Sequence record: OQ411014.1
Length of the DNA: 64,000 nt
From: Escherichia phage EJP2
Strand: one strand, 5' to 3'
Below are positions 30,835 through 51,194 of this stretch, in pieces. Below the pieces are notes generated by a model. The model saw nothing but the letters and a program-made list of their open reading frames with translations. It ran no database searches and was not told the DNA's origin. Made by a program: the position numbers and the translations under genes. The number at the start of each line of letters is the position of its first letter. Within the stretch, counting starts at the first letter, position 1.

Positions 30835-30850
30835 AAAATAGTTTCAAATA

Positions 30851-30876
30851 ACCCAGTCCTAATGGCTGGGTTTTGC
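30851..30876 (+). terminator. rho-independent terminator
   Basis: acccag-N9-ctgggt followed by tttt. Confidence 0.55.
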
Positions 30877-30989
30877 TCTTGAATGTATTAAATACATTTT
30901 TAGACAATATCTTTCTTGTCTAATGCTTAAAAAAACAAGAGGAAATAAATGATAAATTTTGACTTCTATTTGATTGTTGAGGACTGTAT

Positions 30990-34516: not shown

Positions 34517-34525
34517 GATAATCTC

Positions 34526-35704
34526 CTATCGATCAAATTTAAAATCTGTTATGTGTGTCCAAACATGTGGTAATGGTGTACTCAATGGTGTAAATCCAGC
34601 AGGGTCTGACAAAGTACTACCACATGCGTACATAAATTGATTACCAGTACAATCCATTATAGCATAAGAACGTGTAGCTGTACCACATTTGAATCCAACT
34701 GCACTGCTTGGTGTTGGTAATACTTCAAATGTTAGTGCATTTGATGAACCACCACCATCCTTTGTACCTGCGATGTATAGTACTCCATTATTATCAATGA
34801 TTAAGTTGGTCCAATATGCTTGTTCTCTCCCAGCAAGGAAATATGATAAATCACCTGGTACAAATGGTAATGTTCCTTTATACATGGTAGTATTAACATT
34901 CACTGGTGCTCCAGATACACCCCAAGCACTCATGAAGTTTCTTCCACTTGCGTAGAATGTAGTTCCTTTACCGTAAAGTATTAACGTCGCTTGACTTGTA
35001 CGCATTGCATTGTATTCAAACTCAGGATCATCAGTTGCGTTCTTAAAAATCTGTGTCCATGATGTGATATTTCCAGCAGTTGTTACGCCCATTTGATAAT
35101 AATAATTATCACCAGTAGCATAGAATTCTTTTGGTCCAGTTTGCACAACTGCATTACTATTAGTGAGCCAAAAATTCAAAGTTCCAGTTCTTACTATAGT
35201 TGGTGTAAAATTACCGACTGTGTTTCCTTTACCGAAATAACCATTCGCGTTATCCCCATGACCCCACACATCACCATTTGTTGTACGTATGAATAATGTA
35301 CCAGTATTGAAAGCAACTTTTTCTATAGTACTGATATCAATACCAGCCGAAGTGTACTTCGATGTGAAATCTTGAAAAGTACCCCAATAATTAGATGAAC
35401 CATTAAACATTGCTTGTCTACCAGTGTACTTCACTTTATTATCATTAGTTATAAGTAACGTCCCCCACACTGACGCGAACATCAACTTAACATTTTCCAT
35501 AACGAAATATGGTTTACCATATGCCGCAGCGGTAGAGTTCCTCCCTAAAAGTTGACCATTATTACTACAACCCCATACTTCGCCATTATCCAATAGCATT
35601 AACATTGTAGGCTTACCCGATGACACATCCAAGAAGAAATCCACGGGTGTTGCACCTTTCGGTATCACATTTCCATATTCTAACATCCTTACAAAAGGTA
35701 ACAT
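34526..35704 (-). CDS. beta-propeller-like paralog, N-terminal MLPFVRMLEYGN
   Basis: track ORF extends to TTG at 35710; ATG at 35704 follows GGAGA; Gly/Thr/Asn-rich repeat body. Confidence 0.8.
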   Translation of the reverse strand: MLPFVRMLEYGNVIPKGATPVDFFLDVSSGKPTMLMLLDNGEVWGCSNNGQLLGRNSTAAAYGKPYFVMENVKLMFASVWGTLLITNDNKVKYTGRQAMFNGSSNYWGTFQDFTSKYTSAGIDISTIEKVAFNTGTLFIRTTNGDVWGHGDNANGYFGKGNTVGNFTPTIVRTGTLNFWLTNSNAVVQTGPKEFYATGDNYYYQMGVTTAGNITSWTQIFKNATDDPEFEYNAMRTSQATLILYGKGTTFYASGRNFMSAWGVSGAPVNVNTTMYKGTLPFVPGDLSYFLAGREQAYWTNLIIDNNGVLYIAGTKDGGGSSNALTFEVLPTPSSAVGFKCGTATRSYAIMDCTGNQFMYACGSTLSDPAGFTPLSTPLPHVWTHITDFKFDR

Positions 35705-35740
35705 AATCAAATCTCCGTAATTAAATCATACAGTATTTAC

Positions 35741-35771
35741 AAAAAAAATGCCAGTACATATTTCAGTACTA
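35741..35771 (-). terminator. rho-independent terminator within paralog array (example)
   Basis: minus strand: agtactgaaatatgtactggc followed by T8. Confidence 0.6.
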
Positions 35772-35775
35772 TATA

Positions 35776-36942
35776 TTATTGGGGAAAGCGTGGATCGTCA
35801 AGAATAAATTCAGTACTGCTAGTTCCACCATCTGTGATATATGTTCCAGTACTATAGATGTAGTTTCCATCAGTTAGATACGTTCTGAAATTCGTACCAA
35901 TAACCTTAACATTAGGCATATCAGTTACTTCAGATGGTAAAATACATTTTGTATAGAATAGTTTATTTCCACTTGAACCTACACCTAAACAAACATAGTT
36001 GCTGGTATTATAACCACTACCATATACACCATCGGTTGTAACAACAAATGATTTATAATATTCGTATCCCAAATTGACACTTAAACGTTCACCTGCGGGT
36101 TGTTGTCCAGCCGAAATAGTACTATAAGCCTTATAAGTACCAGCCGAATCCTGACCATTACCAAGTGCACCAAATCGAGCAGCACCACCATTATATACGT
36201 TTTTAACTAATGAAGAATTTTGGTTTATACCAATAGCAACAAATTCGTTATTACTATACGCTATATTTGGACTTCCAACAGAAGTTGAATTTAACGTATA
36301 AATGGTTACTCTAGCACTAACATCATTATTATTATACCCAACAATTGTTCCAGTGTAATATAATTTACCGTCTTCTGTATTAAATCCATGCATGGTGCTA
36401 TTTGCGAATATTTTATGTGGGATAATACCATCTGGTATGGTGGCTTTAACAAAAGAACCAGTAATATTCGCTGTAGTATTATTTCCTAATTCACCATAGC
36501 TGCCGTACCCAGTTGACCATATAGTATCATTGGATAATAAAACACTTAGAGAGAATTTTGATGTTACGATATCTTTAATATCTGCCTCTAACAACGCAAA
36601 CAATGAAGAACAATCTGTCCATTGATTAACTGAACCACCAGGAACGCCAATATATGAGTTATTACCACTGAACCAGAACTCCCCATTGAACTTTTGAACT
36701 AATATAGTTTCCGCAGTAACCCATACCTTTTGTACGGAATCCAACGTCGGTGTCCATACAGTAACTTTAGTACCACTGGCATTACCCATACCAAACGCAC
36801 CCGATTGGTCACGCCCACGAACAAATAACTCACCAGATGTCATTAGAACAACCGTGAAATACATAGAGCATTTAATATCTTTTATTGGTGCTGGTGTTGG
36901 GGCTTTATTCCCATAATTTATCATCCTCACAAAAGGTAACAT
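35776..36942 (-). CDS. RCC1-like beta-propeller paralog, N-terminal MLPFVRMINYGN
   Basis: 388 aa; YGSGYNTSNYVCLGVG-type repeats. Confidence 0.8.
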   Translation of the reverse strand: MLPFVRMINYGNKAPTPAPIKDIKCSMYFTVVLMTSGELFVRGRDQSGAFGMGNASGTKVTVWTPTLDSVQKVWVTAETILVQKFNGEFWFSGNNSYIGVPGGSVNQWTDCSSLFALLEADIKDIVTSKFSLSVLLSNDTIWSTGYGSYGELGNNTTANITGSFVKATIPDGIIPHKIFANSTMHGFNTEDGKLYYTGTIVGYNNNDVSARVTIYTLNSTSVGSPNIAYSNNEFVAIGINQNSSLVKNVYNGGAARFGALGNGQDSAGTYKAYSTISAGQQPAGERLSVNLGYEYYKSFVVTTDGVYGSGYNTSNYVCLGVGSSGNKLFYTKCILPSEVTDMPNVKVIGTNFRTYLTDGNYIYSTGTYITDGGTSSTEFILDDPRFPQ

Positions 36943-37019
36943 AATTAATTCTCCAAAATTAAAATAATTATAAGGTATTTAATAAAAAAATACCAGCACC
37001 TTTCAGTACTGGTATTATA

Positions 37020-38402
37020 TTACATACTAGTTAATTGTATTTCTGTTAATGTCGCATAAGTTACGCCTTTGTAAATCCCACGCCAATAAATTTTCCCATC
37101 AGTTCCCATAACTACTAATCCATAGGACAAATGAGCACCAGCATCGTTATAGAGTGTTCCACCAACGTACATAGCATCATATACATCAATGCCAATATCT
37201 TCTGGTGTGAAATTCGCCACCGCCCCAGTAGACCATGTTGGACTTGCAAAATAATCACTATATACACCATGTGCTACTGTTATAACACTTGATCCTCGTT
37301 CATACAACACAGTACCACAAAAACTCATGTGGATACGCGTCGTCTGCGTCGTCGGTATATCAACCAATCCAGCACCTGGGTAAGACCCTGTAGTAATCTT
37401 CTTGTAATCACCACCAGTTGTGTTCAAGCTATTGACAGATGTACTACTCATACCAACGTTGTAGTTCTGGTAGTAATAGAAATTACCACTTATATATACT
37501 GAATACCCACCACCAGTACCATTACGTAATAATTTACCACCGGAAGTGAATAATATACCCTCATTACATGAATCAAAATGATATGTATCAGTTGTTGGAG
37601 CAACAATCTCAGTCCATGCTGTTAGGTTCTGATACGCCCCAGGTGTGTTCGTTAAGCATCTATTACTGTTTGTTCCTTTACCAACCAACGAGCCATCTTC
37701 TAATTGTGCATAAATTGCTTGATAACCATCAGTGTAATAAGTTGAGTTGTGAGCGAAACCAAGAATACCACTTATCTTTTTGACTTTTTGTGTTAATTTG
37801 GTATCTTTAACAAAACCAACAGTCCATTGACCATATGATACAATCTCGTTTATCATACCTAACCCATATGGGCCATTGTACCATATCTCACCCGCATCGT
37901 TAAGTACTACAACTAATCCTTCGTACTTACTTGTAAATGTCCCACTATTCCATGTTACTGGTCCGTTATTATATGCACTTACAACAATCGCATCAACTAT
38001 AGTCCCAACTTTGGTCAAAAATGCACTTACATCAACCCATTGGTAATCAGTCGTGAAAGGTGCACTAGTAGTACTCGCGTTAGTGAACAAACCAGTACTG
38101 TACTGTCCACAGAAGAAATATTTTCCGTTATTATCCAGTACTAAACATCCAATGTTTAATAACCAGAAATCCTTTACATTAGTACGGATAGCTTCTAAAC
38201 CAGAATCAACTGGAGTTTGTACACCAAAGGCAACCTTCTTCGTGTTACCCATTCCATAAAGAGTACCATCATTTCCTAAAATAGCACCCGCCCAGTTCCC
38301 ACCGCCATTTGAGTTTCGTCCTCTACCTACAGTTTGCATCTTTGTACCTTTAGGCACTTCAACTGTATTTCCATAATTTAACATCCTCACAAAAGGTAAC
38401 AT
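37020..38402 (-). CDS. beta-propeller-like paralog, N-terminal MLPFVRMLNYGN
   Basis: track ORF extends to TTG at 38417; ATG at 38402 (460 aa); Gly/Thr/Tyr-rich repeats. Confidence 0.8.
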   Translation of the reverse strand: MLPFVRMLNYGNTVEVPKGTKMQTVGRGRNSNGGGNWAGAILGNDGTLYGMGNTKKVAFGVQTPVDSGLEAIRTNVKDFWLLNIGCLVLDNNGKYFFCGQYSTGLFTNASTTSAPFTTDYQWVDVSAFLTKVGTIVDAIVVSAYNNGPVTWNSGTFTSKYEGLVVVLNDAGEIWYNGPYGLGMINEIVSYGQWTVGFVKDTKLTQKVKKISGILGFAHNSTYYTDGYQAIYAQLEDGSLVGKGTNSNRCLTNTPGAYQNLTAWTEIVAPTTDTYHFDSCNEGILFTSGGKLLRNGTGGGYSVYISGNFYYYQNYNVGMSSTSVNSLNTTGGDYKKITTGSYPGAGLVDIPTTQTTRIHMSFCGTVLYERGSSVITVAHGVYSDYFASPTWSTGAVANFTPEDIGIDVYDAMYVGGTLYNDAGAHLSYGLVVMGTDGKIYWRGIYKGVTYATLTEIQLTSM

Positions 38403-38443
38403 AACTAAATTCTCCAAAATTAAAATAATTATAATGTATTTAC
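38403..38443 (-). promoter_or_regulatory. conserved upstream leader/promoter module of paralog array (example)
   Basis: minus strand gtaaatacattataattattttaattttggagaatttagtt-ATG; near-identical upstream of at least 10 paralogs. Confidence 0.5.
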
Positions 38444-38474
38444 AAAAAAATACCAGTACGTATTTCAGTACTGG
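38444..38474 (-). terminator. rho-independent terminator within array
   Basis: minus strand: ccagtac-tgaaatac-gtactgg followed by T7. Confidence 0.65.
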
Positions 38475-38482
38475 CTTTTTAA

Positions 38483-39652
38483 TTAAGAAGGTAATAGAAA
38501 ATTAGCAAATCCACCCATCCCCAATGTGGGTACTAATCCAGCTACAGTTGGTGCTCTATTTGATGGTGAGCTAACAGCAATTCGACCATCTTTATATACC
38601 AATGAATTAGAACTGCCTGTGCATAAGTATCCACCTGAATATGGTACTGTACTTTGTTTACATTTGGTGAAAATTCCAATGGAAGACGATGCATTTATTA
38701 AATTTACACCATCATATCCACAACTATATATCCACCCATCTTCCCCTATGTATAAAGAAGAACTTGCATTTGCCGAACTAACGAACTTTCTGAATATTCG
38801 CTGATCCATAGGAGCAACTGACAATGTACCGGAATAGAATTTATTATTAATACCACTAGTAACACCGTCACCAAATACACCATAAGAACCTGAACCAGTT
38901 GCATAGTATCGTTTATCTCCCAAGAAAATCATACAGTTGTTATTGCATATTTTATATTGATATATTAAAGTAGTATCAATTCCTGGGAAAGATTCAGTAA
39001 ATGATAGAACATTAGCAATTGTACTTGCGTTGCATTGATGACTTGCATTTTGTCCTGATGATAAAATTGTTCCATCTTGTAGTAATATTCGAGATGTACC
39101 AGTACCACTAAAAACTCTTAATGCTGGTTTTGTATTATATATTTGTTTAAATGAAAAGAAACCAACAGACATTATTCCCTGACCACTCCATCCAGTATTG
39201 TCAGTTCCAATAGCCCATACTGAATCGTCTTCAGCGATAACCATAACACCATAGCGGTCAATGCTAATATCTTTAATTTTGGACATATCAATTGCATTGA
39301 ACCTTGAACTAATATCCTTCCATGTTGTTGTGCTTGCAGTAGGACTTACAGTTATATCATTCCCTGCTATATAAACACTCCCACTTATTGTAACATAAAT
39401 CGTTTGGGAATACCCAGTACTGCATAATAATACATTTTCTGAACTTGGAACCTTAATCCATTCGTTGTAAACTCCAGTTTGGGGCGTAATACCTAACTGA
39501 TAAAAATCATTTGACCCAGTAAGATATAGTTTTCCATCCTTAACAAAACTGAAATTAGAACTGTAATCACTGGATGTAAGTCTTGGTTCAATTGGTACTG
39601 GTGGTACTGGTGCATTATTCCCATATTCTAACATCCTCACAAAAGGTAACAT
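38483..39652 (-). CDS. RCC1-like beta-propeller paralog, N-terminal MLPFVRMLEYGN
   Basis: track ORF to 39667 (TTG); ATG at 39652; resembles 43486-44658. Confidence 0.8.
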   Translation of the reverse strand: MLPFVRMLEYGNNAPVPPVPIEPRLTSSDYSSNFSFVKDGKLYLTGSNDFYQLGITPQTGVYNEWIKVPSSENVLLCSTGYSQTIYVTISGSVYIAGNDITVSPTASTTTWKDISSRFNAIDMSKIKDISIDRYGVMVIAEDDSVWAIGTDNTGWSGQGIMSVGFFSFKQIYNTKPALRVFSGTGTSRILLQDGTILSSGQNASHQCNASTIANVLSFTESFPGIDTTLIYQYKICNNNCMIFLGDKRYYATGSGSYGVFGDGVTSGINNKFYSGTLSVAPMDQRIFRKFVSSANASSSLYIGEDGWIYSCGYDGVNLINASSSIGIFTKCKQSTVPYSGGYLCTGSSNSLVYKDGRIAVSSPSNRAPTVAGLVPTLGMGGFANFLLPS

Positions 39653-39739
39653 AACTAAATTCTCCAAAATTAAAATAATTATAATGTATTTACAAAAAAA
39701 TACCAGTACGTATTTCAGTACTGGTATTGTGGTATTGTA

Positions 39740-40846
39740 TCATTTCGGCATTGTAATTGCAGACCATGAATTTGAAGTAATTGGACCTGGTACGAACACT
39801 GTTGAACCACATGCATAAATTTGTCTATCCCCATCATACACAACACTAAAGCTAGTACAAGTAAACAATGACGAATTTAATGGATTGTAAGTATCTAATG
39901 TTAGTGTATTCTCCCACTGACTTGAACCTAGACCACCTGACCTACCAAATGCACCAGTACTGTATATCTTACCTTCAGTTGTTGCATATATATTAACATA
40001 TGAAGTTGAACTGGATTTAGATATTTTATGTATCTTATTATCAATTGCACTAGGGTTAAATGTAAATGGATATATTTGTACGTTAGTTCTTGAACCATTA
40101 CCAAGTTGACCATCATACTGCCAGCCAGCAACGTATGTACTACTACCTGAATATGCTATAGTACTAGTACTGTTACCGCCCAGTATTTTAACACTAGTTA
40201 AACGACTTACTAAAGTAATGTACTGCCCTTGACTCACACCCAGTGAACCATAACTACTAGTCCCACATCCAATAAGGTCACCGTTGGATGTTAAGATTAA
40301 TGTGTTGTTTTGCGTACCATATATATCAGCAACTTCATTTGTACCAGTATTCAGTACTAACACAAAAGCACTCTGTGAACTTGGATATCCACCACCGAGT
40401 GAATAGTTACCGTTCATGCCTCTTCCATAAACCTTTGTACCACTAGCATCTACGTAGTGCATCGTATCTGAACCAATTGATATCATTTTAATATTAGATA
40501 TGTGTGGGAATGAAGAAGTAACATCTAAACCACCCAAGGGGATTGCAGTATTACCCGTACCTAACTGAGAAGTAACTCCGTGTATTCTGAACTCTTCTCC
40601 TTTGAGATACAGAAGACTGTACCCACCAGCCCATGCATCAGAAACACCCTCTGCAACTAATATCCAAGTATTTTTTGCTGCTGTACCAAAGACATTCAAC
40701 TGCAAATATGAATTATCTCCACATCCATATAATGTCCCATCACTATATAGTACGTACAAATTATTGGTTCCACAAAATACTTTCTTGATCGTTATACCTT
40801 CTGGGGCTATATTTCCATAGGTCATTATTCTTGCAAAAGGTAACAT
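39740..40846 (-). CDS. RCC1-like beta-propeller paralog, N-terminal MLPFARIMTYGN
   Basis: 368 aa; LYGCGDNSYLQLNVFG and related repeats. Confidence 0.8.
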   Translation of the reverse strand: MLPFARIMTYGNIAPEGITIKKVFCGTNNLYVLYSDGTLYGCGDNSYLQLNVFGTAAKNTWILVAEGVSDAWAGGYSLLYLKGEEFRIHGVTSQLGTGNTAIPLGGLDVTSSFPHISNIKMISIGSDTMHYVDASGTKVYGRGMNGNYSLGGGYPSSQSAFVLVLNTGTNEVADIYGTQNNTLILTSNGDLIGCGTSSYGSLGVSQGQYITLVSRLTSVKILGGNSTSTIAYSGSSTYVAGWQYDGQLGNGSRTNVQIYPFTFNPSAIDNKIHKISKSSSTSYVNIYATTEGKIYSTGAFGRSGGLGSSQWENTLTLDTYNPLNSSLFTCTSFSVVYDGDRQIYACGSTVFVPGPITSNSWSAITMPK

Positions 40847-40937
40847 AATTAAATCTCCATATAATAATTATAATGTATTTACAAAAAAAGCCAGTACGTA
40901 TTTCAGTACTGGTATTGTGGTATTGTGGTATTGTGAT

Positions 40938-42128
40938 TTAAGGCTTCGGCACTGGCGGTGTTACCAGTTGATATGTGTTCTGAATTGTATTGTTCGAGAA
41001 TGAACGTCCAGTGTAGTATACGTCACCAGCTTTCGTCAAATAAGCAACGCCGAAATCAGCACCAACATATGTTTCCATGCTGCTAATATTAGGTGGATTC
41101 ACTGGCGGCGTAAATCTAGCCTTGTTACTATTAGTACCATTACCAAACCGACCATAAGTACCATTACCTGTAGTATATAATGTACCATTAGTACTAATAA
41201 CGCAACCAATGTCTGAACCATCACCATTGGTGTTAAGTGTTACTGGAGAAGTTATTACAGTACTGCTATCAGTAAGGAATAGTAAGTTATTATTAATACT
41301 TACAGCATTACTTAAACTACCTGTTCCTAAGTTTCCATTAATACTGTTACCACTTACAATTAAGTACCAAGCGTCAGTTGTTGTATTGTTTATCAATATG
41401 AATGAACCATCTGTGTTCATTGCAACATCATGTGGAATTAGGTTAGTAGCTAAATTGTACTTAGTCCATGAATATATGTTATTCGTTGTTGCCGTAATAC
41501 CCAAGATCCCAGAACTATTCTGACCAGTTCTCCAGAGTGAATTATCATTCTTGATAATCCACGTGGTATTAATGCGATGTGTTAATTTTTTTACATCAGT
41601 ATTCAATTTAGTAAAAGTACTAACCATAGTGTTACTACCAAGTCCTAATGTCCCTCCTAGGTTTCTACCCATACCATATAGATCACCATTTTCTAAGTGC
41701 ACTAAAATATGACTCCACGAAACCTGAATATCAATTATACTGTCTATTTGTGTAGGTGTAAAAACACTCGTAAACAAAGTCGTTATATCAGTCCACGTGG
41801 TACTAAACCCAGTACCAGCAACAATATCATTTGCTCCGGTGTAATAAAATTTATTATCAATAGTCTGAATCAATGCGAACTCAACAAGTGAACATGCAAA
41901 TCTTTTAACATCATGATGTACTAAAACCCAATTCGGATAATTTGTACCACCTGAATCACCTTGTCCGAAGCAGTAGTTCCTTGAAGTTCCACCACCAATC
42001 CCATATAGTGTGTTGTCCTTGTACAATATAAACAAACAACCACTATTACCCGATGGCATATAAATTGTTTCTATTGGTGAAGTAGGTAACTTATTCCCGT
42101 ACTCCAAAATTCTTGCAAAAGGTAACAT
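40938..42128 (-). CDS. beta-propeller-like paralog, N-terminal MLPFARILEYGN
   Basis: track ORF to 42188; conserved ATG at 42128 (396 aa). Confidence 0.75.
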   Translation of the reverse strand: MLPFARILEYGNKLPTSPIETIYMPSGNSGCLFILYKDNTLYGIGGGTSRNYCFGQGDSGGTNYPNWVLVHHDVKRFACSLVEFALIQTIDNKFYYTGANDIVAGTGFSTTWTDITTLFTSVFTPTQIDSIIDIQVSWSHILVHLENGDLYGMGRNLGGTLGLGSNTMVSTFTKLNTDVKKLTHRINTTWIIKNDNSLWRTGQNSSGILGITATTNNIYSWTKYNLATNLIPHDVAMNTDGSFILINNTTTDAWYLIVSGNSINGNLGTGSLSNAVSINNNLLFLTDSSTVITSPVTLNTNGDGSDIGCVISTNGTLYTTGNGTYGRFGNGTNSNKARFTPPVNPPNISSMETYVGADFGVAYLTKAGDVYYTGRSFSNNTIQNTYQLVTPPVPKP

Positions 42129-42215
42129 AACTAAATTCTCCAAAATTAAAATAATTATATTGTATTTACAAAAAAAATACCAGCACATATTTCAGTACTG
42201 GTATTGTTTCTTATT

Positions 42216-43406
42216 TTATTGCCATAACTGTGTTGGCATTAGGGTTAGTGTAGTAACAACAGACGCACCATTAGGTAAGTTACCACCAGAACCATTAAAA
42301 CCACCACACGCATATAATTTATAATCTTTAGTAACAATTAATGTCCTGGACCAGTCTTTAGATGCCATAAGAACATTGTCATATCCACCAGGTATAGCAG
42401 TTAATTTAAACAACGCCCACGAATTAACTAGAGTTGTATTTCCTGTTCCTTGTTGACCATATGAATTGACACCACCACTCCTAACATATGATGGGTATTG
42501 AGCCATAGGTGTACCAATTGATGCGTTACCCATAGAACTAGGACATAAGAAAGCATCACTAATATTCACTGTAACTTGTGAATTTTTAACTGGAGTGAGT
42601 TGGTTTGTAGATGAAGTAGTACCATTCCCAGCTTGTCCAGTATTGTTGTAACCACTCCAATACACACTACCAGCAGTGAACCACCAAGTAACATCATAGG
42701 TAGCACTTATATAATCGACGTTCGTTCGTATTAATTTATTAGTATAAACGAATGAGCTAGTCCCACCCCCACTTTCACCAAAGTTATCCTTACCACAAAA
42801 CCATGCTTCTTTATTTGTTTTGAGATAGTGTGTACCCTGTAATGAACATGCGAGTTGAGAAACTTCACCCATATTAGTCATAACTGTTAGTACTGGAATA
42901 GCATTTTTATTCCCTGAACCACATTCAGCATTTGTATTGTTACCACAAGCAATGACTCTTCCATCGTGTAGTAATATTCTAGTACTTTCACCTATATGTA
43001 CACTCTTGATTAAATTAGCGTGCACATTAATTTTGTCAAAGGAAGCAGTAACATCAGTCCATGTTAAGAAATATCCATTAACAGGAGTTGCGGCTCCATA
43101 ATCAGGAAATGCACCTATCGACCCAGTGTAGTATATTCTATTATCCAGATCAATCATCAATGATCCATGAACACCTACCCAAAACGCCGCACAGTGCATT
43201 GCGAGTACAGTAAAAGTAGAAACTGTTGATCTATTCCCTAGACCTAATTGGCCCAAGTTATTACTACCATATCCGTATAATGTATTCGTGGGCTTATGTA
43301 GATACATAGCATTGGTGTATTGTTGCTGTAAAACATCAGTAAACTCTACTGGATCAGGAGGGGCAATCGTATTCCCATAAGTCATTATTCTTGCAAAAGG
43401 TAACAT
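42216..43406 (-). CDS. RCC1-like beta-propeller paralog, N-terminal MLPFARIMTYGN
   Basis: track ORF to 43421; ATG at 43406; clear repeats LYGYGSNNLGQLGLGN, WYSGYNNTGQAGNG, VNSYGQQGTGN. Confidence 0.85.
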   Translation of the reverse strand: MLPFARIMTYGNTIAPPDPVEFTDVLQQQYTNAMYLHKPTNTLYGYGSNNLGQLGLGNRSTVSTFTVLAMHCAAFWVGVHGSLMIDLDNRIYYTGSIGAFPDYGAATPVNGYFLTWTDVTASFDKINVHANLIKSVHIGESTRILLHDGRVIACGNNTNAECGSGNKNAIPVLTVMTNMGEVSQLACSLQGTHYLKTNKEAWFCGKDNFGESGGGTSSFVYTNKLIRTNVDYISATYDVTWWFTAGSVYWSGYNNTGQAGNGTTSSTNQLTPVKNSQVTVNISDAFLCPSSMGNASIGTPMAQYPSYVRSGGVNSYGQQGTGNTTLVNSWALFKLTAIPGGYDNVLMASKDWSRTLIVTKDYKLYACGGFNGSGGNLPNGASVVTTLTLMPTQLWQ

Positions 43407-43447
43407 AACTAAATTCTCCAAAATTAAAATAATTATAATGTATTTAC

Positions 43448-43481
43448 AAAAAAATACCAGTACGTATTTCAGTACTGGTAT
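43448..43481 (-). terminator. rho-independent terminator within array
   Basis: minus strand: taccagtac-N8-gtactggta followed by T7. Confidence 0.65.
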
Positions 43482-43485
43482 AATG

Positions 43486-44658
43486 TTATGGTAAAATAAT
43501 AGCTTGTAACGAACTCATACCCAATTCTGGAACACTCGCCTGTGGTGCTGGTGCATTCACTTTTGGTGATGAAACCGCATAAGTCATTCCTGTACCCAAA
43601 TCTGGATCAAAAACTACAGAACAATAATCCCCATTGTATATAAGTCCATTAGTATATCCTTGTGCACTTTGAATGCATTTCGTGAACGTACCAATGTCAG
43701 TAGTGGCATTTATTAAGTTCCTCCCACGGTAGCCACAGGTGTATATGAAATTATCAACACCTATGTACATACTCGCATTCCCAGAAGAACTACATAGATA
43801 AGACATATAAGCACGCATGTTTTTAGGAGCAACTGACAATGTACCAGCATAGAATTTATTATTCGAACCCGAAATATCACCATCACCCAAAGCACCAAAA
43901 CTCCCCCAACCAGTACCATAATATCTCTTATCACTCAAGAATATAATACAGTTGTTATTACACATCTTGATTTGATATATCAATGAAGGATCAACCCCAG
44001 GGAATGATTCAGTGTATGTTAGAACAGCCAGATCAGTACTAGCATTACATTGATGATATGTATTAGTACCAGCGGACAATATTGTACCATTAGCTAATAG
44101 AATCCTCGAAGTGCCAGTACCAGCAGTACAAGCAACAGCATTACCTGTATATATTTGTCTGAAAGTAAAGAAACCAACAGTTTTACTCCCCTGTCCACTC
44201 CAACCAGTATTATCAACACCACATGCCCATACTGAACCATCTTGCATGATCATCATTACACCATAGCGTTCTATCGAAATATAGACAATCTTCGTAGTAT
44301 CAACTGCACTAAATCTAGAAGTTATATCAGTCCAAACCTTTACACTCACCGCCGTCGCACCGAAAGTAGGATCTTCCCCTGCTATCATTATCCTACCATT
44401 GTTAGTCAGATACATTGTCTGACCATAACCAGTACTACAAAACTTAACACTATCAGTCTCTGGAACTTTTAACCACTCGTTGTAACGTGTTACGTTAGTG
44501 TTATTACCTAACTGATAATAGTTATTCATCCCAGATACATATAACACACCATCCTTTATTAAACTATAAGTCGCACTATAGTCACTACAGGTATAACGTG
44601 TACCCACAGGCCGCTCAACGACGTTCCCATATTCTAACATCCTTACAAAAGGTAACAT
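43486..44658 (-). CDS. RCC1-like beta-propeller paralog, N-terminal MLPFVRMLEYGN
   Basis: track ORF to 44664; ATG at 44658; LYVSGMNNYYQLGNNT repeat. Confidence 0.8.
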   Translation of the reverse strand: MLPFVRMLEYGNVVERPVGTRYTCSDYSATYSLIKDGVLYVSGMNNYYQLGNNTNVTRYNEWLKVPETDSVKFCSTGYGQTMYLTNNGRIMIAGEDPTFGATAVSVKVWTDITSRFSAVDTTKIVYISIERYGVMMIMQDGSVWACGVDNTGWSGQGSKTVGFFTFRQIYTGNAVACTAGTGTSRILLANGTILSAGTNTYHQCNASTDLAVLTYTESFPGVDPSLIYQIKMCNNNCIIFLSDKRYYGTGWGSFGALGDGDISGSNNKFYAGTLSVAPKNMRAYMSYLCSSSGNASMYIGVDNFIYTCGYRGRNLINATTDIGTFTKCIQSAQGYTNGLIYNGDYCSVVFDPDLGTGMTYAVSSPKVNAPAPQASVPELGMSSLQAIILP

Positions 44659-44732
44659 AATCAAATCTCCGTAATTAAATCATACAGTATTTACAAAAAA
44701 ATACCAGTACATATTCCAGTACTGGCCTATTA

Positions 44733-45854
44733 TTAAAAGGGCAACGGTAACTCAGTAAAAGTACTTACGTTCGGTAAACCATACATTAAATTAGCATCAC
44801 CACAGTAATACCACTTCGTAGAATCATGTACCACCGATAAACGCTGTGCACATAACACTTCCTGTATGTCATTAAACACCATCGGGACTAACTCATATGT
44901 ATCCGCATATGAAGATTCACCACCACTCGCATGAAAAGTATTCATCCCAGCATAAAATAACTGATTAGTGTTCTTACCCACAGCAAATGTCATCAATATC
45001 CCATCATTCTCCCATAAAGAAGAAAACTTATCAACACTACCAGAAAGCTCTGTGTAAGTACTCGTAATGGCACTCGCAGCCGCCGCATTACCCATCTGTT
45101 TATTCAAGTTCTGTCCAGCAATAAAATATCTCGTGCGTGCACTAGAATCAGTATATAATAACCCAGTGTTCGTAGTCATCATTCCAATGTCCTTAATCGT
45201 CATACCAGTCTGTGAATAACTTAGATACGAAGTTAAACTACCATTATTACCCAACGAACCGTTATCACTCATGCCACAACGATGTAATATACCACTTGTA
45301 TCAACGTAGATAGTACTAACTAAACTCGTATACAACTCTTGTACATTATTCGCAATAAACACAGCAGTCGCCTTATTAGTAACCCCACCAAATGATAGGT
45401 TATTATCAAATCCCTTAGCGTATAATTGATTATTAGTAGTAACTAACCCAATCGCGTAATAAGATATTTTCATATCCCTTACAGTACTCAAATCTACTAC
45501 CCCAAATTGATGCGTAACATCTGTCCATGTGAAAATCTGTGCACTACCAACACCACCCGTTTCAAACCATTTGTCACCACAGTACAATATGCGATTATCC
45601 TTAGTAAAGATAACTGTTACCAATCCACTACCACACGCAAACTTTACATCACTTCTAACCTTCGTCCAATCAAGTACATAGGTAGTGGTGTTATTACCTA
45701 TACCTAACTTACCATAACGGTTATAACCACGCACCCACAAATCACCACTCTCAGTAATTAATAGTAATGCGTCTCCTGTACTTATTATTCGAAATCCCGA
45801 ACTAGGATCGGGTGCTATATTCCCATAAGTCATCATTCTTGCAAAAGGCAACAT
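44733..45854 (-). CDS. beta-propeller-like paralog, N-terminal MLPFARMMTYGN
   Basis: 373 aa; WVRGYNRYGKLGIGNN repeat. Confidence 0.8.
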   Translation of the reverse strand: MLPFARMMTYGNIAPDPSSGFRIISTGDALLLITESGDLWVRGYNRYGKLGIGNNTTTYVLDWTKVRSDVKFACGSGLVTVIFTKDNRILYCGDKWFETGGVGSAQIFTWTDVTHQFGVVDLSTVRDMKISYYAIGLVTTNNQLYAKGFDNNLSFGGVTNKATAVFIANNVQELYTSLVSTIYVDTSGILHRCGMSDNGSLGNNGSLTSYLSYSQTGMTIKDIGMMTTNTGLLYTDSSARTRYFIAGQNLNKQMGNAAAASAITSTYTELSGSVDKFSSLWENDGILMTFAVGKNTNQLFYAGMNTFHASGGESSYADTYELVPMVFNDIQEVLCAQRLSVVHDSTKWYYCGDANLMYGLPNVSTFTELPLPF

Positions 45855-45935
45855 AATAAAATCTCCGTAATTAAATCATACAGTATTTACAAAATACCAG
45901 CACATATTTCAGTACTGGTATAGTGGTATATTAAA

Positions 45936-47084
45936 TCACTGCACAAATGACATATCAACTTCTGTGTAACTAGGCACGCTCTGTGTAGAAAGACCACCCA
46001 TTGCTACCATCGCAATTCCACAATAATATAACTTCCCTTTGTCATCGAGTAACAATGTCCCAGATGGTGTTGTTACTAAATTACACGAAGTATTAAAAGA
46101 AGTATATGAAGGAGTATAGTAGTACTGATTAATGGTATTACCTACACCTAATTTTCCATACCCATTGCCGCCAGATGCGTAAAGTACTTCATCTGCTTTG
46201 ACAATATGTGATGCCATGTTACTAACACACGTATATACAGCACTAACTCCTGTACTCAATAATGTAGGAGTCTTGTATTGGAGATCAGTACTGGAAGATG
46301 TTCCACCTGTACCAAATTCATTACCGTATTGTGCACCGTATTGTTTACCACATCCGTACAAATTACCATCACTCTTAATAAAAAACGTACTCTGGTAACT
46401 TACATTAAAATCAATAACATCTGATGCAATCTGCTTTACTCCAGTGATAGAAACCTGATCCCCTGTACCTAACTGATAGTAATAGTTAAATCCACATCCC
46501 CATAAGGTATTGTCTGTACGCAAATAAATGTTACCAACAGCCTTTTTAACAGACGTTATAGTACTGACCTTCTTGAATGTATTAAATGAACTAATGTTTG
46601 TACCATCTCCAAAGGATGTTATATTAGATATGTTATTAGCACCACAACAATATAATGTACCGTCATTTGTTACCAAATTCACCTTCATATTATTAAAACT
46701 ACTCATGTACGCAATATCCGAAACAGTAATACCACTGGATGTTATCCACGTAGTACAATCCGTCCATAACGTCTTTCTATCAGTTACACCAGTGAATGCA
46801 TTTGTGTTTCCAGTCATAAACACTTTCCCTGTGCCCTCTTCTTCATACAACTGACAATCACTGCTGTTATCTTCCAATAGAACTCTTTTAACGTTCTCTG
46901 CACATAGAATAAATTTACTCGCAGCTACTCCAGTTCCCGTACCATAAATGCTTCCAGATGATGCATACAACTTTTTAGTGAAAGTATCATGTAAGTATAC
47001 AGACATACTAGAATATATTTTAAAACGATCATCGTTAGTAGGAGCAACATTACTGTACTCCAATATCCTCGCAAAAGGTAACAT
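45936..47084 (-). CDS. beta-propeller-like paralog, N-terminal MLPFARILEYSN
   Basis: track ORF to 47099; ATG at 47084; Gly/Thr/Asn-rich repeats. Confidence 0.75.
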   Translation of the reverse strand: MLPFARILEYSNVAPTNDDRFKIYSSMSVYLHDTFTKKLYASSGSIYGTGTGVAASKFILCAENVKRVLLEDNSSDCQLYEEEGTGKVFMTGNTNAFTGVTDRKTLWTDCTTWITSSGITVSDIAYMSSFNNMKVNLVTNDGTLYCCGANNISNITSFGDGTNISSFNTFKKVSTITSVKKAVGNIYLRTDNTLWGCGFNYYYQLGTGDQVSITGVKQIASDVIDFNVSYQSTFFIKSDGNLYGCGKQYGAQYGNEFGTGGTSSSTDLQYKTPTLLSTGVSAVYTCVSNMASHIVKADEVLYASGGNGYGKLGVGNTINQYYYTPSYTSFNTSCNLVTTPSGTLLLDDKGKLYYCGIAMVAMGGLSTQSVPSYTEVDMSFVQ

Positions 47085-47123
47085 AACTAAATTCTCCATA
47101 CAATAATTATAATGTATTTAACC

Positions 47124-47153
47124 AAAAAAAGCCAGCACCTTTCAGTACTGGTA
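47124..47153 (-). terminator. rho-independent terminator within array
   Basis: minus strand: accagtactgaaaggtgctggc followed by T7. Confidence 0.6.
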
Positions 47154-47162
47154 TCTATAATC

Positions 47163-48059
47163 CTATGTAAAAACATACTGCGTGTTAACACGTGTACCAT
47201 TGTCAAAACCAAGCACATAAAATATCTCAGGACTATTATTAGAACCAAATAACGCTCCAGTACTACTACTCAAAGTACTATTAACCGCTAACGCAATCCA
47301 TTCGTTTTGTTCTTGGTCGTATCTCAATAAATTTAATGCACCAAATGATACTGCATATATTTGTTTATCATATGTATTGTAAATTATTTTACTAGGGTTA
47401 GAACCACCAACACCAGCAATGTTAGACCACACAGCACTCTGTATATGATATTTTTGTGCAGTACTCACACCTTGGCCTGTAATATATATGTAAGTACCAT
47501 CTGTACACATATCACCACCACCATTGTTATTTGTACCATCACTCGTACCTAATGATGCCCAGGTATTAGTACTAGGAGTATAACTGTATAACGAATTATT
47601 AGTAGGAGATCCCCACAAATATATCTTATCACCAGCAGTAATCATCTTACTATACGCCAGTTGATTAGGCTTCCCAATACTGTTAGTGTTCAGAATCCAG
47701 GTATTTGTACTTATATTATATACATAAAAATTATTAGCACCATTACCAGTACCACCAAACAAATATATTTTCCCCTCATAAAAACATAACGCACTACCAA
47801 ATGTAGATACAGGTGCATTGGCTAATTGTAACCACGTTCTAGTACTTAAATTAAAACTCCATAACTGATTATCCCCCATCACCGCATTCTGTATACCACC
47901 AAATATATAAGCAGTATTACTTTTCGCATCATACGTATAACCAAAGTTATTTTTAGCAGGAGGTACAGGTGATGTCGTAAATGCAGAACGTATTCCCCTA
48001 TTGGTAGCAAACACCTCTGCAACATTCCCGTACTCCAACATCCTTACAAAAGGTAACAT
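47163..48059 (-). CDS. Kelch-like beta-propeller paralog, N-terminal MLPFVRMLEYGN (short member)
   Basis: 298 aa; Kelch-type spacing: AYIFGG...WSFNLSTRTW...KIYLFGG...YVYNISTNTW. Confidence 0.75.
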   Translation of the reverse strand: MLPFVRMLEYGNVAEVFATNRGIRSAFTTSPVPPAKNNFGYTYDAKSNTAYIFGGIQNAVMGDNQLWSFNLSTRTWLQLANAPVSTFGSALCFYEGKIYLFGGTGNGANNFYVYNISTNTWILNTNSIGKPNQLAYSKMITAGDKIYLWGSPTNNSLYSYTPSTNTWASLGTSDGTNNNGGGDMCTDGTYIYITGQGVSTAQKYHIQSAVWSNIAGVGGSNPSKIIYNTYDKQIYAVSFGALNLLRYDQEQNEWIALAVNSTLSSSTGALFGSNNSPEIFYVLGFDNGTRVNTQYVFT

Positions 48060-48136
48060 AACTAATTCTCCAAAATTAAAATAATTATAATGTATTTACA
48101 AAAATACCAGCACCTTTCAGTACTGGTATAGTAGTA

Positions 48137-49246
48137 TTATATCGGTAAATCTATCTTAGTGAAAATACCAACATCTTCACTCGCTCCAGGTATTGCATAA
48201 TATGTCCCAGTACTGTACACTTCACCATCTTTTGTTAATATAGATGTTAAACCATCACTATAAAGAACATCCCTGATATCACTAACTCCAACTGGTAACT
48301 GCAAATTCGTTGCACTATAAACCGCTCCAGTCTGAGAATTGTTTAATCCTAAACCACGGTTTGAACCTACACCCTTCTGATATGTACTAGTAATTATAAT
48401 TTGTGTAGCAGTATTTAATGCAGGTGAATTCGTCATAAACAACGGAGAACTATTAGGCAAAGAACTTGCAGGAACTGCACGAAATGTAGTTGCATCTGAA
48501 CTAAGAAAGTTTGGCGTTTGACCACATACGAAATATGATGTACCATTATAGTAATTAAATGCATTACCACCTATAGCTGCATCTATTACTCCAGTACTAC
48601 GTAATCCCCACGTGTTAATTTGTGTTCGGTTCCCCGTACCATGCTGACCCCTGTCATTCCACCCAGAACTATATAACTTATTATCTAATGTAATATACAT
48701 ACTGTCATTTGCATTCGTCATTACTTTACGCACATTAGTAGCACATTGAGTTAATGTGTAAATTGATGATGAACCAATACCTAAAGCACCACGATATCCA
48801 TTAGCCCCTGCACCATAGAGTACTGAACTAGTGCTAAGTACAAATATTAAACCATACGAACATACTATATCAGCAATTTCATTTACCGATAGTACACTAG
48901 TAAACCACGCAGTCCTATCAACTAATACAGTACTGTAAGAAGTCCCAGTAGAAGACGAAAACCAATAAGTCTCACCAGTAGTCCATATAGTATTGTCACT
49001 CTTAATAACAACAACTGTACGATCACCAGCAAAAAAATTAGTAACTCCTGTACTCACTAATGTCCATGAAGATACAGTGTTCGTATTGTTATTACCCGAT
49101 TCCCCACCCTGATTCCTACCTATGTAATATAATTCATTCGTGTCAGTCAACACATACTGCCCCTGCGTCGATGCCCCAACCTTAATTATATTTTTAGGAC
49201 CGGGTGCAACATTCCCGTACTCCAACATCCTTACAAAAGGTAACAT
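48137..49246 (-). CDS. RCC1-like beta-propeller paralog, N-terminal MLPFVRMLEYGN
   Basis: 369 aa; LYSSGWNDRGQHGTGN, LYGAGANGYRGALGIG; 10 bp downstream of 49257-50387. Confidence 0.8.
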   Translation of the reverse strand: MLPFVRMLEYGNVAPGPKNIIKVGASTQGQYVLTDTNELYYIGRNQGGESGNNNTNTVSSWTLVSTGVTNFFAGDRTVVVIKSDNTIWTTGETYWFSSSTGTSYSTVLVDRTAWFTSVLSVNEIADIVCSYGLIFVLSTSSVLYGAGANGYRGALGIGSSSIYTLTQCATNVRKVMTNANDSMYITLDNKLYSSGWNDRGQHGTGNRTQINTWGLRSTGVIDAAIGGNAFNYYNGTSYFVCGQTPNFLSSDATTFRAVPASSLPNSSPLFMTNSPALNTATQIIITSTYQKGVGSNRGLGLNNSQTGAVYSATNLQLPVGVSDIRDVLYSDGLTSILTKDGEVYSTGTYYAIPGASEDVGIFTKIDLPI

Positions 49247-49256
49247 ATTTCTCTCC

Positions 49257-50387
49257 TTAATTTAATAATGCCCCTGGCAAATCCACTTTGACGAATTGTG
49301 CATATGCTGTGGAATTTTGATCAAAGTTTGGTCCCAATCCATAAAATGAGCTAATGCCGTCTTCATTTGTGTATATGATATAAACGTTCTTTACATCATT
49401 TCCGCATATAAATCGAATGTCTTTCGTTTGTGTTCCCGCTGGAACATTACGAAGGCTCACAACGCCATTACTTGCATTGTTATCAGCCGACGCAATTGGT
49501 AATTGATTTTGACCATATTGACCACGCATATTTTTTGCATCTAAACCAAACACAGTATTTGATACCGCACCAACTTTCAAAAATGAACCAAAACTATCAT
49601 TGAATGACTTTGGAAATGTACCACTATAAACACTTCTCCCATCTGATAATACCGCTGAACTGAATTTCCCGCTATTCGATATGGCAAATTCATTGTAAGG
49701 AAGTGTACCCATTTTGGTATATACAGAATATGAATTAGTGGAAGTATTATCAATAATCTTATTACCATTATATCCAATACCATACTGGTATCCGTCTGCA
49801 TCTTGAACTATACACAAAGGACCACTTGGGGTTTGTGTCAACGAAACAACACGTTCAACTTGTATATCACCAAATGTATTTCTTCGCCATGTTCTATCTA
49901 TTATAGTACTAGTATTACCCAAAGATAATGCCACACTATATAATAGATTGTTTTCAGTAAAAATGGCAACATAATATGCGTGGTTAATAACTTGCTTCAT
50001 CCCAGCATCAATAACTTCCTGTGGAATATGATCAGTAACATCCAACCAATCAAGGTTAGATGATGCAATATCTGGAGTACTGAATTTGTCAAATCTAGTT
50101 GAGCCACAAACTAGCACTCTATCATCATTTGTCAAAGCCACTGTGCTAGTCTGCATATTAGAACTGAATGATTTAACATTACTAATGTTAGACTTGTACC
50201 AACCCTTATCAGCAGCACCCACCGTGAATCCGGTTCCCATTGATCCACTTGTACTTGTACCATAAGCCCACATCTCACCACTATATGTTAGTGCCATACA
50301 GTGGCTTCCATTTGCTTGGAAATCCTTTATACCAGTGGGAGCAGCCACTGTATTCCCATAATTAAACATTCTAACAAAAGGTAACAT
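49257..50387 (-). CDS. beta-propeller-like paralog, N-terminal MLPFVRMFNYGN (first gene of array)
   Basis: track ORF to 50396; conserved ATG at 50387; upstream conserved gtaaatactatataat motif. Confidence 0.75.
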   Translation of the reverse strand: MLPFVRMFNYGNTVAAPTGIKDFQANGSHCMALTYSGEMWAYGTSTSGSMGTGFTVGAADKGWYKSNISNVKSFSSNMQTSTVALTNDDRVLVCGSTRFDKFSTPDIASSNLDWLDVTDHIPQEVIDAGMKQVINHAYYVAIFTENNLLYSVALSLGNTSTIIDRTWRRNTFGDIQVERVVSLTQTPSGPLCIVQDADGYQYGIGYNGNKIIDNTSTNSYSVYTKMGTLPYNEFAISNSGKFSSAVLSDGRSVYSGTFPKSFNDSFGSFLKVGAVSNTVFGLDAKNMRGQYGQNQLPIASADNNASNGVVSLRNVPAGTQTKDIRFICGNDVKNVYIIYTNEDGISSFYGLGPNFDQNSTAYAQFVKVDLPGALLN

Positions 50388-50501
50388 AATAATCATCCCT
50401 ATACAATAAAATTATATAGTATTTACCAAAACAACTATTGACAACACAATAGCAGTACTGTATAGTATAGCAATAAAATTCCCACATAAAGGCCCAACAA
50501 C

Positions 50502-51194
50502 ATGAAACTCTCTAAACTACAAAAGCACTACAATTCAGTACTGAAAGCTACTAAAGCAGCTAATACACTACTATTCAATGAACCCCCAAAAAATATATTC
50601 AAACATATACCCAAAATGTATATAACAAAATCCCCAAATAAAATCCTTAAAAAGATTTCACAAAAATATAACATAACAATTGCTCACGTAGGTAAGTCCA
50701 AATCAAACCATAAACTATCATTCAGTACTAAAGCTAATGAAAGAACTACATTCATAGAATTTTCACTGTACAATATCCCGTGCGTTCTTTGGATCTCACC
50801 AGCAGTATACTTCGATGCTACATCTAAAGTGCATATAAACAATTCGTACAAAAACTTATTCTCATTCAATAATATCGACGACACACAACAACCAAGAGTC
50901 TCACTAGCAAATTCCGGCGATTCATACTTATCAGATAAAATACAAAACTCTAAACTAATCGTAACTACACCTAATAAAGAACTACAAAAAGTACTAGCTA
51001 AAAATCTGCACACAACCTATAAGAACTATACAGAAGAAGAAATCTTCCAACAATCTCTAGTACTACCTAATGCAGAACTCTATATAGCAGCACAAAACAT
51101 AAACATAAAAATAGCAGAACTAATCTCTAATAACAACTGTACTATAAAAGATATTATATACACTATAGCTAATGAAACTATTCATAACATATAA
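50502..51194 (+). CDS. basic protein, LQKHY family (copy 4, right flank of array)
   Basis: 230 aa; MKLSKLQKHY N-terminus and EEEIFQQSLVLPNAELY segment match the 31381-33346 family. Confidence 0.6.
   Translation: MKLSKLQKHYNSVLKATKAANTLLFNEPPKNIFKHIPKMYITKSPNKILKKISQKYNITIAHVGKSKSNHKLSFSTKANERTTFIEFSLYNIPCVLWISPAVYFDATSKVHINNSYKNLFSFNNIDDTQQPRVSLANSGDSYLSDKIQNSKLIVTTPNKELQKVLAKNLHTTYKNYTEEEIFQQSLVLPNAELYIAAQNINIKIAELISNNNCTIKDIIYTIANETIHNI

Follow-up and report, generated by a model that had tools for sequence, protein, structure and literature searches.

The gene at positions 47163-48059 (minus strand) of a 64,000-nucleotide stretch of the genome of Escherichia phage EJP2 (sequence record OQ411014.1; this whole stretch is called the window below, and coordinates given without another source refer to it) encodes a six-bladed Kelch β-propeller, in contrast to the 14 other genes of the window whose products start with the same short peptide, and which are of the seven-bladed RCC1 type. 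This N-terminal peptide of 12 residues, hereafter the MLPF-tag or simply the tag, is portable, and has been found on at least five unrelated types of protein body in Rak2-like jumbo phages. The motif M-L-P-F-[AV]-R-x-x-x-Y-[GS]-N, by which it is recognized in EJP2, opens 15 open reading frames (ORFs) of the window, of which 14 form a tandem series on the minus strand (33386-50387) and one is located apart, at 19676-20854. EJP2 is a jumbo myovirus with a genome of 349 kb, in which the 298-amino acid (aa) product of 47163-48059 is represented, with a 100% match, by the hypothetical protein EJP02_508. The DNA of the locus is 83-89% identical to that of phages Turkey5 and A4, with 121Q and PBECO4 being more distant, and the window is therefore regarded as DNA of a Rak2-like jumbo coliphage (121Q group), related to Asteriusvirus. 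RCC1, Kelch and paralogues go unmentioned in the genome paper of EJP2, and neither propellers nor Kelch are mentioned in the survey of jumbo phages by the Aravind group (PMC7824862).

A Kelch propeller among RCC1 propellers

Sequence profiles and predicted structure agree on the identity of the protein encoded by 47163-48059 (stop codon included). In the Pfam scan it exceeded the cut-offs (given in brackets) of several Kelch families, namely PF24681 with 79.6 bits (50), Kelch_6 (PF13964) with 65 (25.3), Kelch_3 (PF13415) with 51.1 (22), Kelch_1 (PF01344) with 46.7 (20.1) and Kelch_4 (PF13418) with 46.4 (21.6), with zero RCC1 matches. Six of the seven neighbours tested matched the RCC1 families PF25390, PF00415 or PF13540, and the seventh (37020-38417) exhibited no significant Pfam match. 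The same division is seen in PHROGs, where the Kelch protein falls into phrog_12615 and its neighbours into phrog_4219. The AlphaFold2 model of the Kelch ORF (predicted TM-score, pTM, 0.80) is an all-β propeller of 23 strands, with the body formed by residues 27-298 (47166-47981). When compared by Foldseek with the PDB it superposes on solved Kelch domains, with NS1-BP (5yy8; TM-score over the query, TMq, 0.76) as the best match, followed by KLHDC10, KEAP1, KLHL3 and KLHL20, the top matches being all Kelch proteins; neither the profile nor the seven-bladed fold of RCC1 was found in it. The model of the upstream RCC1 neighbour (48137-49246; pTM 0.81) was structurally matched to UVR8, HERC and RCC1. 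In PDB sequence searches only Kelch proteins were matched by the Kelch ORF, and HERC2, UVR8 and RPGR by the RCC1 neighbour; no solved phage structure of the Kelch or the RCC1 array protein family was found in the PDB searches.

The view that the 298-aa protein is merely a shortened and diverged RCC1 paralogue, in which nothing has been swapped, was tested and rejected, with next to no probability left to it: hhalign does match the Kelch and RCC1 profiles (probability 74%), and the two kinds of propeller belong to a single Pfam β-propeller clan, but the alignment is limited to the tag and the ~80 columns that follow it, a BLASTP comparison of the Kelch and RCC1 bodies with the tag removed finds nothing (best 22 bits, E = 0.18), several Kelch families and no RCC1 family pass the Pfam cut-offs, and the best structural matches are Kelch proteins for the ORF model as against UVR8, HERC and RCC1 for the model of the neighbour.

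The first-pass annotation of the window, made from the sequence alone, had singled out this gene as an array member with a Kelch-like body that is shorter than its neighbours and retains their leader and upstream module. This description has stood up well. The leader (MLPFVRMLEYGN) is the motif common to the 15 ORFs of the window, the 298 aa of the product compare with 369 and 382 aa in the adjoining RCC1 members, Pfam, PHROGs, AlphaFold2 and Foldseek all assign the body to Kelch and not to RCC1, so that a common repeat family with the neighbours is rejected, and the module is indeed kept, with a hairpin, a T-run and a promoter-like 20-mer on both flanks of the gene.

The tag and the bodies that carry it

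The tag of the Kelch gene, which occupies codons 1-12 (48024-48059, minus strand), is also the tag of four RCC1 members of the array, and is followed by a linker of residues 13-26 (VAEVFATNRGIRSA, 47982-48023). EJP02_508 exhibits the sequence features by which we define an MLPF-tag protein: M-L-P-F-x-R-x-x-x-Y-G-N followed by a flexible linker, in a tagged array of a jumbo phage. The Kelch gene has its first 42 nt fully in common with gene 49246 (the upstream RCC1 neighbour), and windowed DNA identity between the Kelch gene and every paralogue drops to background after ~+42 to +45 nt. The 14 RCC1 paralogues are only ~18-29% identical to one another, and seven of their ten invariant alignment columns lie within the 12 residues of the tag, the proteins being otherwise ~25% identical. 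In the AlphaFold2 models, residues 1-26 of the Kelch protein and 1-19 of the RCC1 neighbour are devoid of secondary structure and have low pLDDT (predicted local distance difference test score), which is below 50 in the Kelch protein for both tag and linker; the tag is therefore predicted to lie outside either propeller fold. The linker that follows the tag in the RCC1 paralogues is often rich in proline. The possibility that the tag provides the closing ('velcro') strand of a propeller was considered and ruled out, since it is unstructured in both models and present on bodies that are not propellers.

Across genera, M1, L2, P3, F4, Y10, G11 and N12 are kept (as is R6 in most cases), and the codons vary: Pro3 is encoded by CCT in the coliphages and by CCA in the CBB-like phages, with TAT/TAC, GGN and AAT/AAC variation elsewhere in the tag. 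The constancy of the residues, together with the different codons and unrelated upstream DNA, argues for selection on the peptide. A scan of IMG/VR with a degenerate DNA pattern of the tag returned 12 stretches, of which 11 belong to jumbo-phage contigs of 348-378 kb (121Q, CBB and GAP32-sized genomes among them) and one to a 24-kb fragment, and the tag thus appears to be specific to the Rak2-like clade.

The bodies found behind the tag comprise RCC1, Kelch, Laminin_G_3/ConA-like and glycine-rich types, several bodies of 170-260 aa without a Pfam match, and one fusion of RCC1 with Kelch. The glycine-rich type, with GGxGG runs, is exemplified by the 245-aa gp243 of 121Q (11471-10734 of the locus) and by gene 9153-9986 of a 349-kb metagenomic phage (ENA ERZ22351198 NODE_18); these bodies have no match in Pfam, are annotated only as hypothetical, and represent a further body type inside 'RCC1' arrays. 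The array of this metagenomic phage (8680-19457) begins with Kelch and RCC1, continues with a 165-aa protein and four RCC1 members, and ends with Kelch and RCC1; its Kelch gene and the adjoining RCC1 gene both exhibit the deviant tag MFPISIISQYGN, and the start of its last gene (18183-19457) may have been miscalled, as a second MLPF is encountered after ~40 codons. The fusion is a 667-aa protein of IMGVR_UViG_3300031417_000002 (355 kb; 8416-6413), composed of the tag, an RCC1 propeller (residues ~29-390) and a Kelch propeller (residues ~402-667); it looks as if the spacer and the second tag between adjoining RCC1 and Kelch cassettes had been lost. In the 121Q array, a tagged ORF of 68 aa and small pieces annotated as RCC1 are located beside truncated paralogues (locus 8219-8013, 5879-5751 and 4550-4326), and such short fragments fit frameshifted or decaying cassettes, or sequencing errors.

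It was proposed in the first-pass annotation that the N-terminal tag and the promoter module together serve as a portable adaptor, onto which different types of propeller have been grafted. The tag does recur on at least five unrelated bodies, RCC1 and Kelch among them; the bodies, however, are not propellers only, the module is specific to one lineage and absent upstream of genes 49246 and 34516, and the function of an adaptor is one that the tag would have under the explanation weighed below. Nor is the Kelch fusion recent. Full-length tagged Kelch orthologues have been identified in Turkey5 and A4 (85-86% identity), in BF17 and vB_Ec-M-J (75%), in a metagenomic jumbo phage (54%), in CBB (38%) and in Erwinia phages, and their presence in CBB, Erwinia and metagenomic phages implies that the combination of the tag with Kelch predates EJP2. 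According to the paper on CBB, obvious homologues of its Kelch proteins are lacking in other Rak2-like phages (PMC5259590), a statement now contradicted by the orthologues in EJP2, Turkey5, A4 and BF17.

The tag also unites gene families of Rak2-like jumbo phages that have been annotated apart, and in part misleadingly, as 'DNA condensation/RCC1', 'HERC1 ubiquitin ligase', 'Kelch-like', 'Laminin_G_3' and 'structural protein', into what would be one system, an address peptide with interchangeable binding heads. Annotations of the arrays in Turkey5, 121Q and phAPEC6 include 'E3 ubiquitin-protein ligase HERC1', 'regulator of chromosome condensation' and 'DNA condensation protein'. The names that refer to HERC1, chromosomes or DNA condensation are transferred from eukaryotic proteins with RCC1 domains, and nothing examined in these phages supports the functions they imply.

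Intergenic modules and exchange of tagged genes

The tandem array, as delineated by the tag motif, alignment of paralogues and terminator-like hairpins, consists of 14 tagged genes, 13 with RCC1-type bodies and one with the Kelch body. At most of its junctions a hairpin (CCAGTAC...GTACTGG) with a T-run is followed by G/TTAAATACATTATAAT and then by a GGAG ribosome-binding site, and the Kelch gene is bracketed by such elements on both flanks, with the G/TTAAATACATTATAATTATT 20-mer at 48080-48099 and 47102-47121. The module upstream of it (48060-48136, minus strand) contains the hairpin at 48104-48129 with the T-run, the promoter-like GTAAATACATTATAATTATT at 48080-48099 and the GGAG at 48068-48071, and its predicted RNA fold has an energy of -18 kcal/mol (z = -2.85). 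The module downstream (47085-47162, minus strand), which also serves the next gene, has its hairpin at 47132-47151 and the promoter-like TTAAATACATTATAATTATT at 47102-47121. Nine copies of the 20-mer are present in the window against 0.08 expected, every one of them upstream of a tagged gene, including the solitary RCC1 gene at 19676-20854 (minus strand). Terminator-like sites number 22 against 7.3 expected, and the best 11 hairpins are all intergenic, between array genes, on the minus strand.

The core of the module, TAAATA followed by TATAAT, does not qualify as a σ70 early promoter: in a consensus scan of the array, σ70-type sites were unenriched (80 against 84.8 expected), with zero within a module, and a classical promoter-early stem-loop (PeSL) reading is thereby ruled out. 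TAAATA resembles ATAAATA, a late motif reported upstream of structural genes of CBB and GAP32 (PMC5259590), and the array promoter is by this resemblance putatively of the late type. A phage-wide motif was considered as well and rejected within the 64-kb window, where the 20-mer and the hairpin adjoin only tagged genes; other late genes may still use it, as the main block of structural genes lies outside the window.

The module is not found throughout. At the junctions upstream of genes 49246 (49247-49256) and 34516 (34517-34525) it is replaced by a spacer of ~10 nt with a ribosome-binding site, and the pairs concerned (50387 to 49246 and 35704 to 34516) are probably co-transcribed; the same junction sequence is also present in Turkey5, there preceding gene 5888, which has a different body. 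In CBB-like phages the tagged genes are preceded by unrelated sequences. Within the lineage the intergenic modules are genome-specific versions of one design, and these comparisons indicate that the terminator-promoter module is specific to the 121Q/EJP2 lineage, with the tag as the universal unit.

The comparison of arrays allows the boundaries of exchanged DNA to be located. Between EJP2 and 121Q, homology covers gene 49246 together with the module, and is lost 42 nt after the start of the Kelch gene (48018). In Turkey5, the Kelch body with its stop codon and a 12-nt spacer (locus 12005-12853) corresponds to a segment absent from 121Q, and the high-scoring segment pairs (HSPs) on the two sides of this gap overlap on the tag of 121Q, at 13901-13960. 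Gene 245 of 121Q matches the Turkey5 Kelch gene in its upstream DNA and the gene after Kelch in its body, so that the difference between the two phages shows exactly the pattern that a crossover from tag to tag would leave. In the breakpoint analysis at the junction of tag and body that had been suggested in the first-pass annotation, similarity between paralogues is lost just behind the tag, and the Turkey5/121Q interruption ends within it.

A second case involves Turkey5 genes 8286 and 7029, the counterparts of which in EJP2 are 44658 (94% nucleotide identity) and 50387 (97%); the EJP2 pair is not adjacent. An EJP2-type module is present between the two Turkey5 genes, and the shared blocks end approximately at the tags of 8286 and of the next gene, 5888. 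This two-gene block (Turkey5 5845-8357 against 43369-44726 and 49203-50431 of the window) is 94-97% identical, as compared with 65-83% for the rest of the arrays, suggesting that co-circulating jumbo coliphages have exchanged DNA laterally in the recent past. The rank of the Kelch gene varies likewise: it leads the array of BF17, occupies the third place in EJP2 and Turkey5, and is missing from 121Q. It travels with its upstream neighbour, the tagged RCC1 propeller of 369 aa (48137-49246, minus strand; Pfam RCC1, with AlphaFold2 and Foldseek matches to UVR8 and RCC1), the two forming a unit in both EJP2 and Turkey5 that is spanned by a single HSP of 2.1 kb. The downstream neighbour (45936-47084, minus strand; 382 aa), a tagged RCC1 propeller by Pfam and an orthologue of 121Q gp248, is not adjacent to the Kelch gene in Turkey5.

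Taken together, these alignments show that whole gene units are inserted, deleted or exchanged, and that the boundaries of the units fall within the DNA that encodes the tag. The cassette mechanism suggested earlier for the array is supported to this extent, as far as whole genes are concerned; no replacement of one body by another has been seen in EJP2. The Kelch member is an old mobile cassette and not a fresh graft, the event seen being gain or loss of the whole cassette.

The tags themselves vary in a manner that follows the genome. The prevailing residues at positions 5 and 7-9 are V/A plus MLE or IMT in EJP2, V plus LFD in Turkey5 and A plus MVK in 121Q. Identity at positions 5, 7, 8 and 9 amounts to 0.45-0.69 among paralogues within a genome, compared with 0.31 among orthologues whose bodies are 73-98% identical and 0.23-0.30 in random pairs between genomes. 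Tag variants therefore track the genome and not the ancestry of the gene, which argues for concerted evolution of the tag.

Other gene families adjoin the tagged genes. Four paralogous genes of 206-230 aa, functionally unassigned and with N-termini of the MK..L/F..HY type, are located on both flanks of the array on the opposite strand (31381-33346 and 50502-51194, plus strand); gp233 and gp256 of 121Q resemble them in size, position and strand. Seven small genes (100-140 aa) at 28547-31292 (plus strand) look, by eye and on the basis of hydrophobic stretches, like paralogous multi-pass membrane proteins, and a comparable run of genes annotated as 'membrane protein' (gp434-440) adjoins the tagged cluster of CBB.

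Virion association, proposed role and comparison with known systems

Tagged proteins have been detected in virions of two relatives of EJP2. According to the mass spectrometry (MS) data of the CBB paper, seven of the nine tagged proteins of the CBB locus considered here are present in the particle (CBB_536, 537, 548, 549, 551, 552 and 553; PMC5259590), among them one Kelch protein (CBB_552) and LamG-type proteins (PMC5259590). In phAPEC6, a close relative of 121Q, gp003, 005, 006, 007, 009 and 010, proteins of 30-41 kDa from the region of the array genes, are listed as virion-associated (PMC7247149); four of the six are annotated as 'DNA condensation protein' or RCC1-like and two as hypothetical (PMC7247149), and the MS peptide counts given there are low, from 1 to 4 (PMC7247149). 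The 30-kDa gp007 was considered as a Kelch orthologue but is more likely the counterpart of a 269-aa truncated RCC1 protein of 121Q. No strings of the tag peptide and no N-terminal peptides were found in the supplements of the CBB paper. In a more distant jumbo phage, PhiKZ, the Kelch protein gp298 is a low-abundance component of the virion and is required for adsorption to some strains (bioRxiv 10.1101/2025.11.23.690004).

We propose that the 12-residue peptide acts as a clade-specific and fold-independent signal for incorporation into the virion, by docking. A changeable set of small domains that bind ligands, among them RCC1 and Kelch propellers and ConA/LamG-like lectin folds, would be fixed by it to a single common site of the particle, where the docked heads would act as accessory adhesins, widening or tuning adsorption to hosts. 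The near-identical tag-coding DNA and the flanking modules would provide homology for unequal recombination and for recombination between phages, which would insert, delete, reorder and exchange the body cassettes, Kelch included, and homogenize the tags of each genome. Three steps in this are inferred, namely docking at the particle surface, function as adhesins and expression late in infection, and the explanation taken as a whole, with tag-bounded exchange of cassettes, is in our judgement somewhat more probable than not. It would make the tagged proteins testable candidates for those features of 121Q-like virions that are still unassigned, and could account for some of the breadth of the host ranges of these phages.

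Several points weigh against this explanation. The virion data come from CBB and phAPEC6 and not from the array members of EJP2, and CBB_550, the closest CBB orthologue of EJP02_508, is one of the two tagged proteins that MS did not detect (PMC5259590). Association with the virion does not separate surface from interior, and the authors of the phAPEC6 study proposed a DNA-condensing role in an inner body (PMC7247149). The docking partner is a postulate, and solved structures include none of these proteins. Gene conversion alone could yield concerted evolution of the tag without a co-evolving receptor, and the assignment of a late promoter is a matter of motif resemblance only.

The idea may be carried further, although with clearly less confidence. 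The tag could be a universal plug for one class of sockets on the Rak2-like virion, the particle being a mosaic of 10-15 different lectin-like heads in random mixture and serving as a bet-hedging organelle of adsorption; we regard this as a tentative and rather doubtful extension. Candidate sockets would be the unassigned density at the centre of capsid hexamers and the rings of 'hairy' appendages of phAPEC6, 121Q and CBB. If this were true, the genome-specific variants MLE, LFD and MVK would reflect a co-evolution of tag and socket protein, and crossovers inside tag-coding DNA would mean that any newly landed binding domain is displayed at once.

Alternatively, the tag may be a capsid-targeting sequence (CTS) like that of T4, by which the propellers are loaded into the interior of the prohead and ejected with the DNA as intracellular effectors, with anti-defence or DNA-organizing roles. 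The site of the T4 prohead protease is L/I-x-E, and seven of the 15 EJP2 tags resemble it, with [MI]-L-E at positions 7-9. Internal proteins of T-even phages are highly diverse and have in common only a conserved N-terminal CTS (PMC3012670), in the same way as the tagged proteins share only the tag. Rak2-like phages are related to T4, phAPEC6 possesses an inner body for which its authors name RCC1-like proteins as candidates (PMC7247149), and PhiKZ packages proteins by N-termini wedged in the capsid (bioRxiv 10.1101/2025.11.23.690004). However, Glu9, found in seven of the 15 tags of EJP2, occurs in none of the ten tags of 121Q (MVK) and none of the 13 of Turkey5 (LFD or MVK), and a common cleavage site is therefore unlikely: the tag resembles a CTS in being a short conserved N-terminal peptide on unrelated cargos, but lacks a conserved prohead-protease site behind it. 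Besides, the cargos are rigid propellers or lectin-like folds of 25-45 kDa, typical of extracellular binders, and would be expected to pass awkwardly through a tail tube; the 1-4 MS peptides in the phAPEC6 data contrast with ~1000 molecules of internal proteins in total per T4 head (PMC3012670); and the only phage virion Kelch protein tested functionally, PhiKZ gp298, acts in adsorption. We consider internal targeting unlikely on balance.

Much less probable still is the explanation that the shared 5' end is a by-product of duplication and gene conversion, kept for expression signals in DNA or RNA, and that the Kelch gene has simply landed behind an expression module. Within a genome the tag DNA and the upstream module are indeed near-identical, synonymous and non-coding sites included, as gene conversion produces. 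Across genera, however, the residues of the tag are kept when the codons and all of the upstream sequence differ, the tag also occurs where the tagged genes of a phage do not share an upstream module, it contains seven of the ten columns that are invariant among the RCC1 paralogues, and seven of the nine tagged CBB proteins end up in the virion.

Among known systems, the gene families closest to the EJP2 array are its own relatives, as the RCC1-like arrays of 121Q, PBECO4 and phAPEC6 and the Kelch-like proteins of CBB belong to the same families and the same locus. Eleven RCC1-like proteins were described in phAPEC6, several of them virion-associated (PMC7247149), and three Kelch-like proteins in CBB, one of them in the virion (PMC5259590); the passages and supplementary tables of PMC7247149 and PMC5259590 that were covered do not mention a shared tag, a link between RCC1, Kelch and LamG, or tag-bounded exchange. 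PhiKZ gp298 is similar in being a virion Kelch protein with a role in adsorption, as proposed here for the tagged heads, but it comes from the Chimalliviridae and is encoded by a single gene outside any array. Kelch matches in other Pseudomonas jumbo phages are ~30% identical over ~140 residues, leave the first 16-32 residues uncovered and have no tag match.

The tag itself has its best parallel in the T4 internal proteins IPI, IPII and IPIII and their T-even counterparts, in which a short N-terminal peptide is the sole common part of unrelated, fast-evolving and dispensable virion proteins (PMC3012670), encoded in a plastic region of the genome of a T4-related myovirus (PMC3012670). Unlike the CTS of T4, the tag bears no sequence similarity to that signal and has no conserved protease site; the internal proteins are small, in contrast to the 25-45 kDa propellers and lectin-like folds under the tag, and the probable location in the particle differs as well. 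If the tag alone were sufficient for incorporation, it would provide a 12-residue handle for display of foreign proteins on jumbo-phage particles. Hoc and Soc have been used as display handles. The T4 CTS, in turn, has already been used as a handle for loading of proteins (PMC3012670).

The organization of the array resembles that of PeSL cassettes of T4-type phages (Comeau et al. 2014), in which a terminator hairpin and a promoter are repeated between non-essential genes (PMC2839356, PMC4122927), and in which indels, replacements and reordering between related phages end at the repeats (PMC2839356, PMC4122927), as they do at the module or the tag in EJP2, Turkey5 and 121Q. The array thus exhibits the stem-loop and promoter repeat and the ends at repeats, but not the strong σ70-like early promoter, its own being similar to the late TATAAATA/ATAAATA type. 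A further difference is that the homology for crossovers reaches into, and often ends in, the 42 nt with which the coding sequence opens, preserving the tag of the protein; classical PeSLs have no such coding part. PeSL-type shuffling is here extended to a recombination repeat that also encodes a functional peptide, and every recombinant therefore keeps the address. In this respect the system of the tagged genes combines CTS-like addressing with PeSL-like shuffling.

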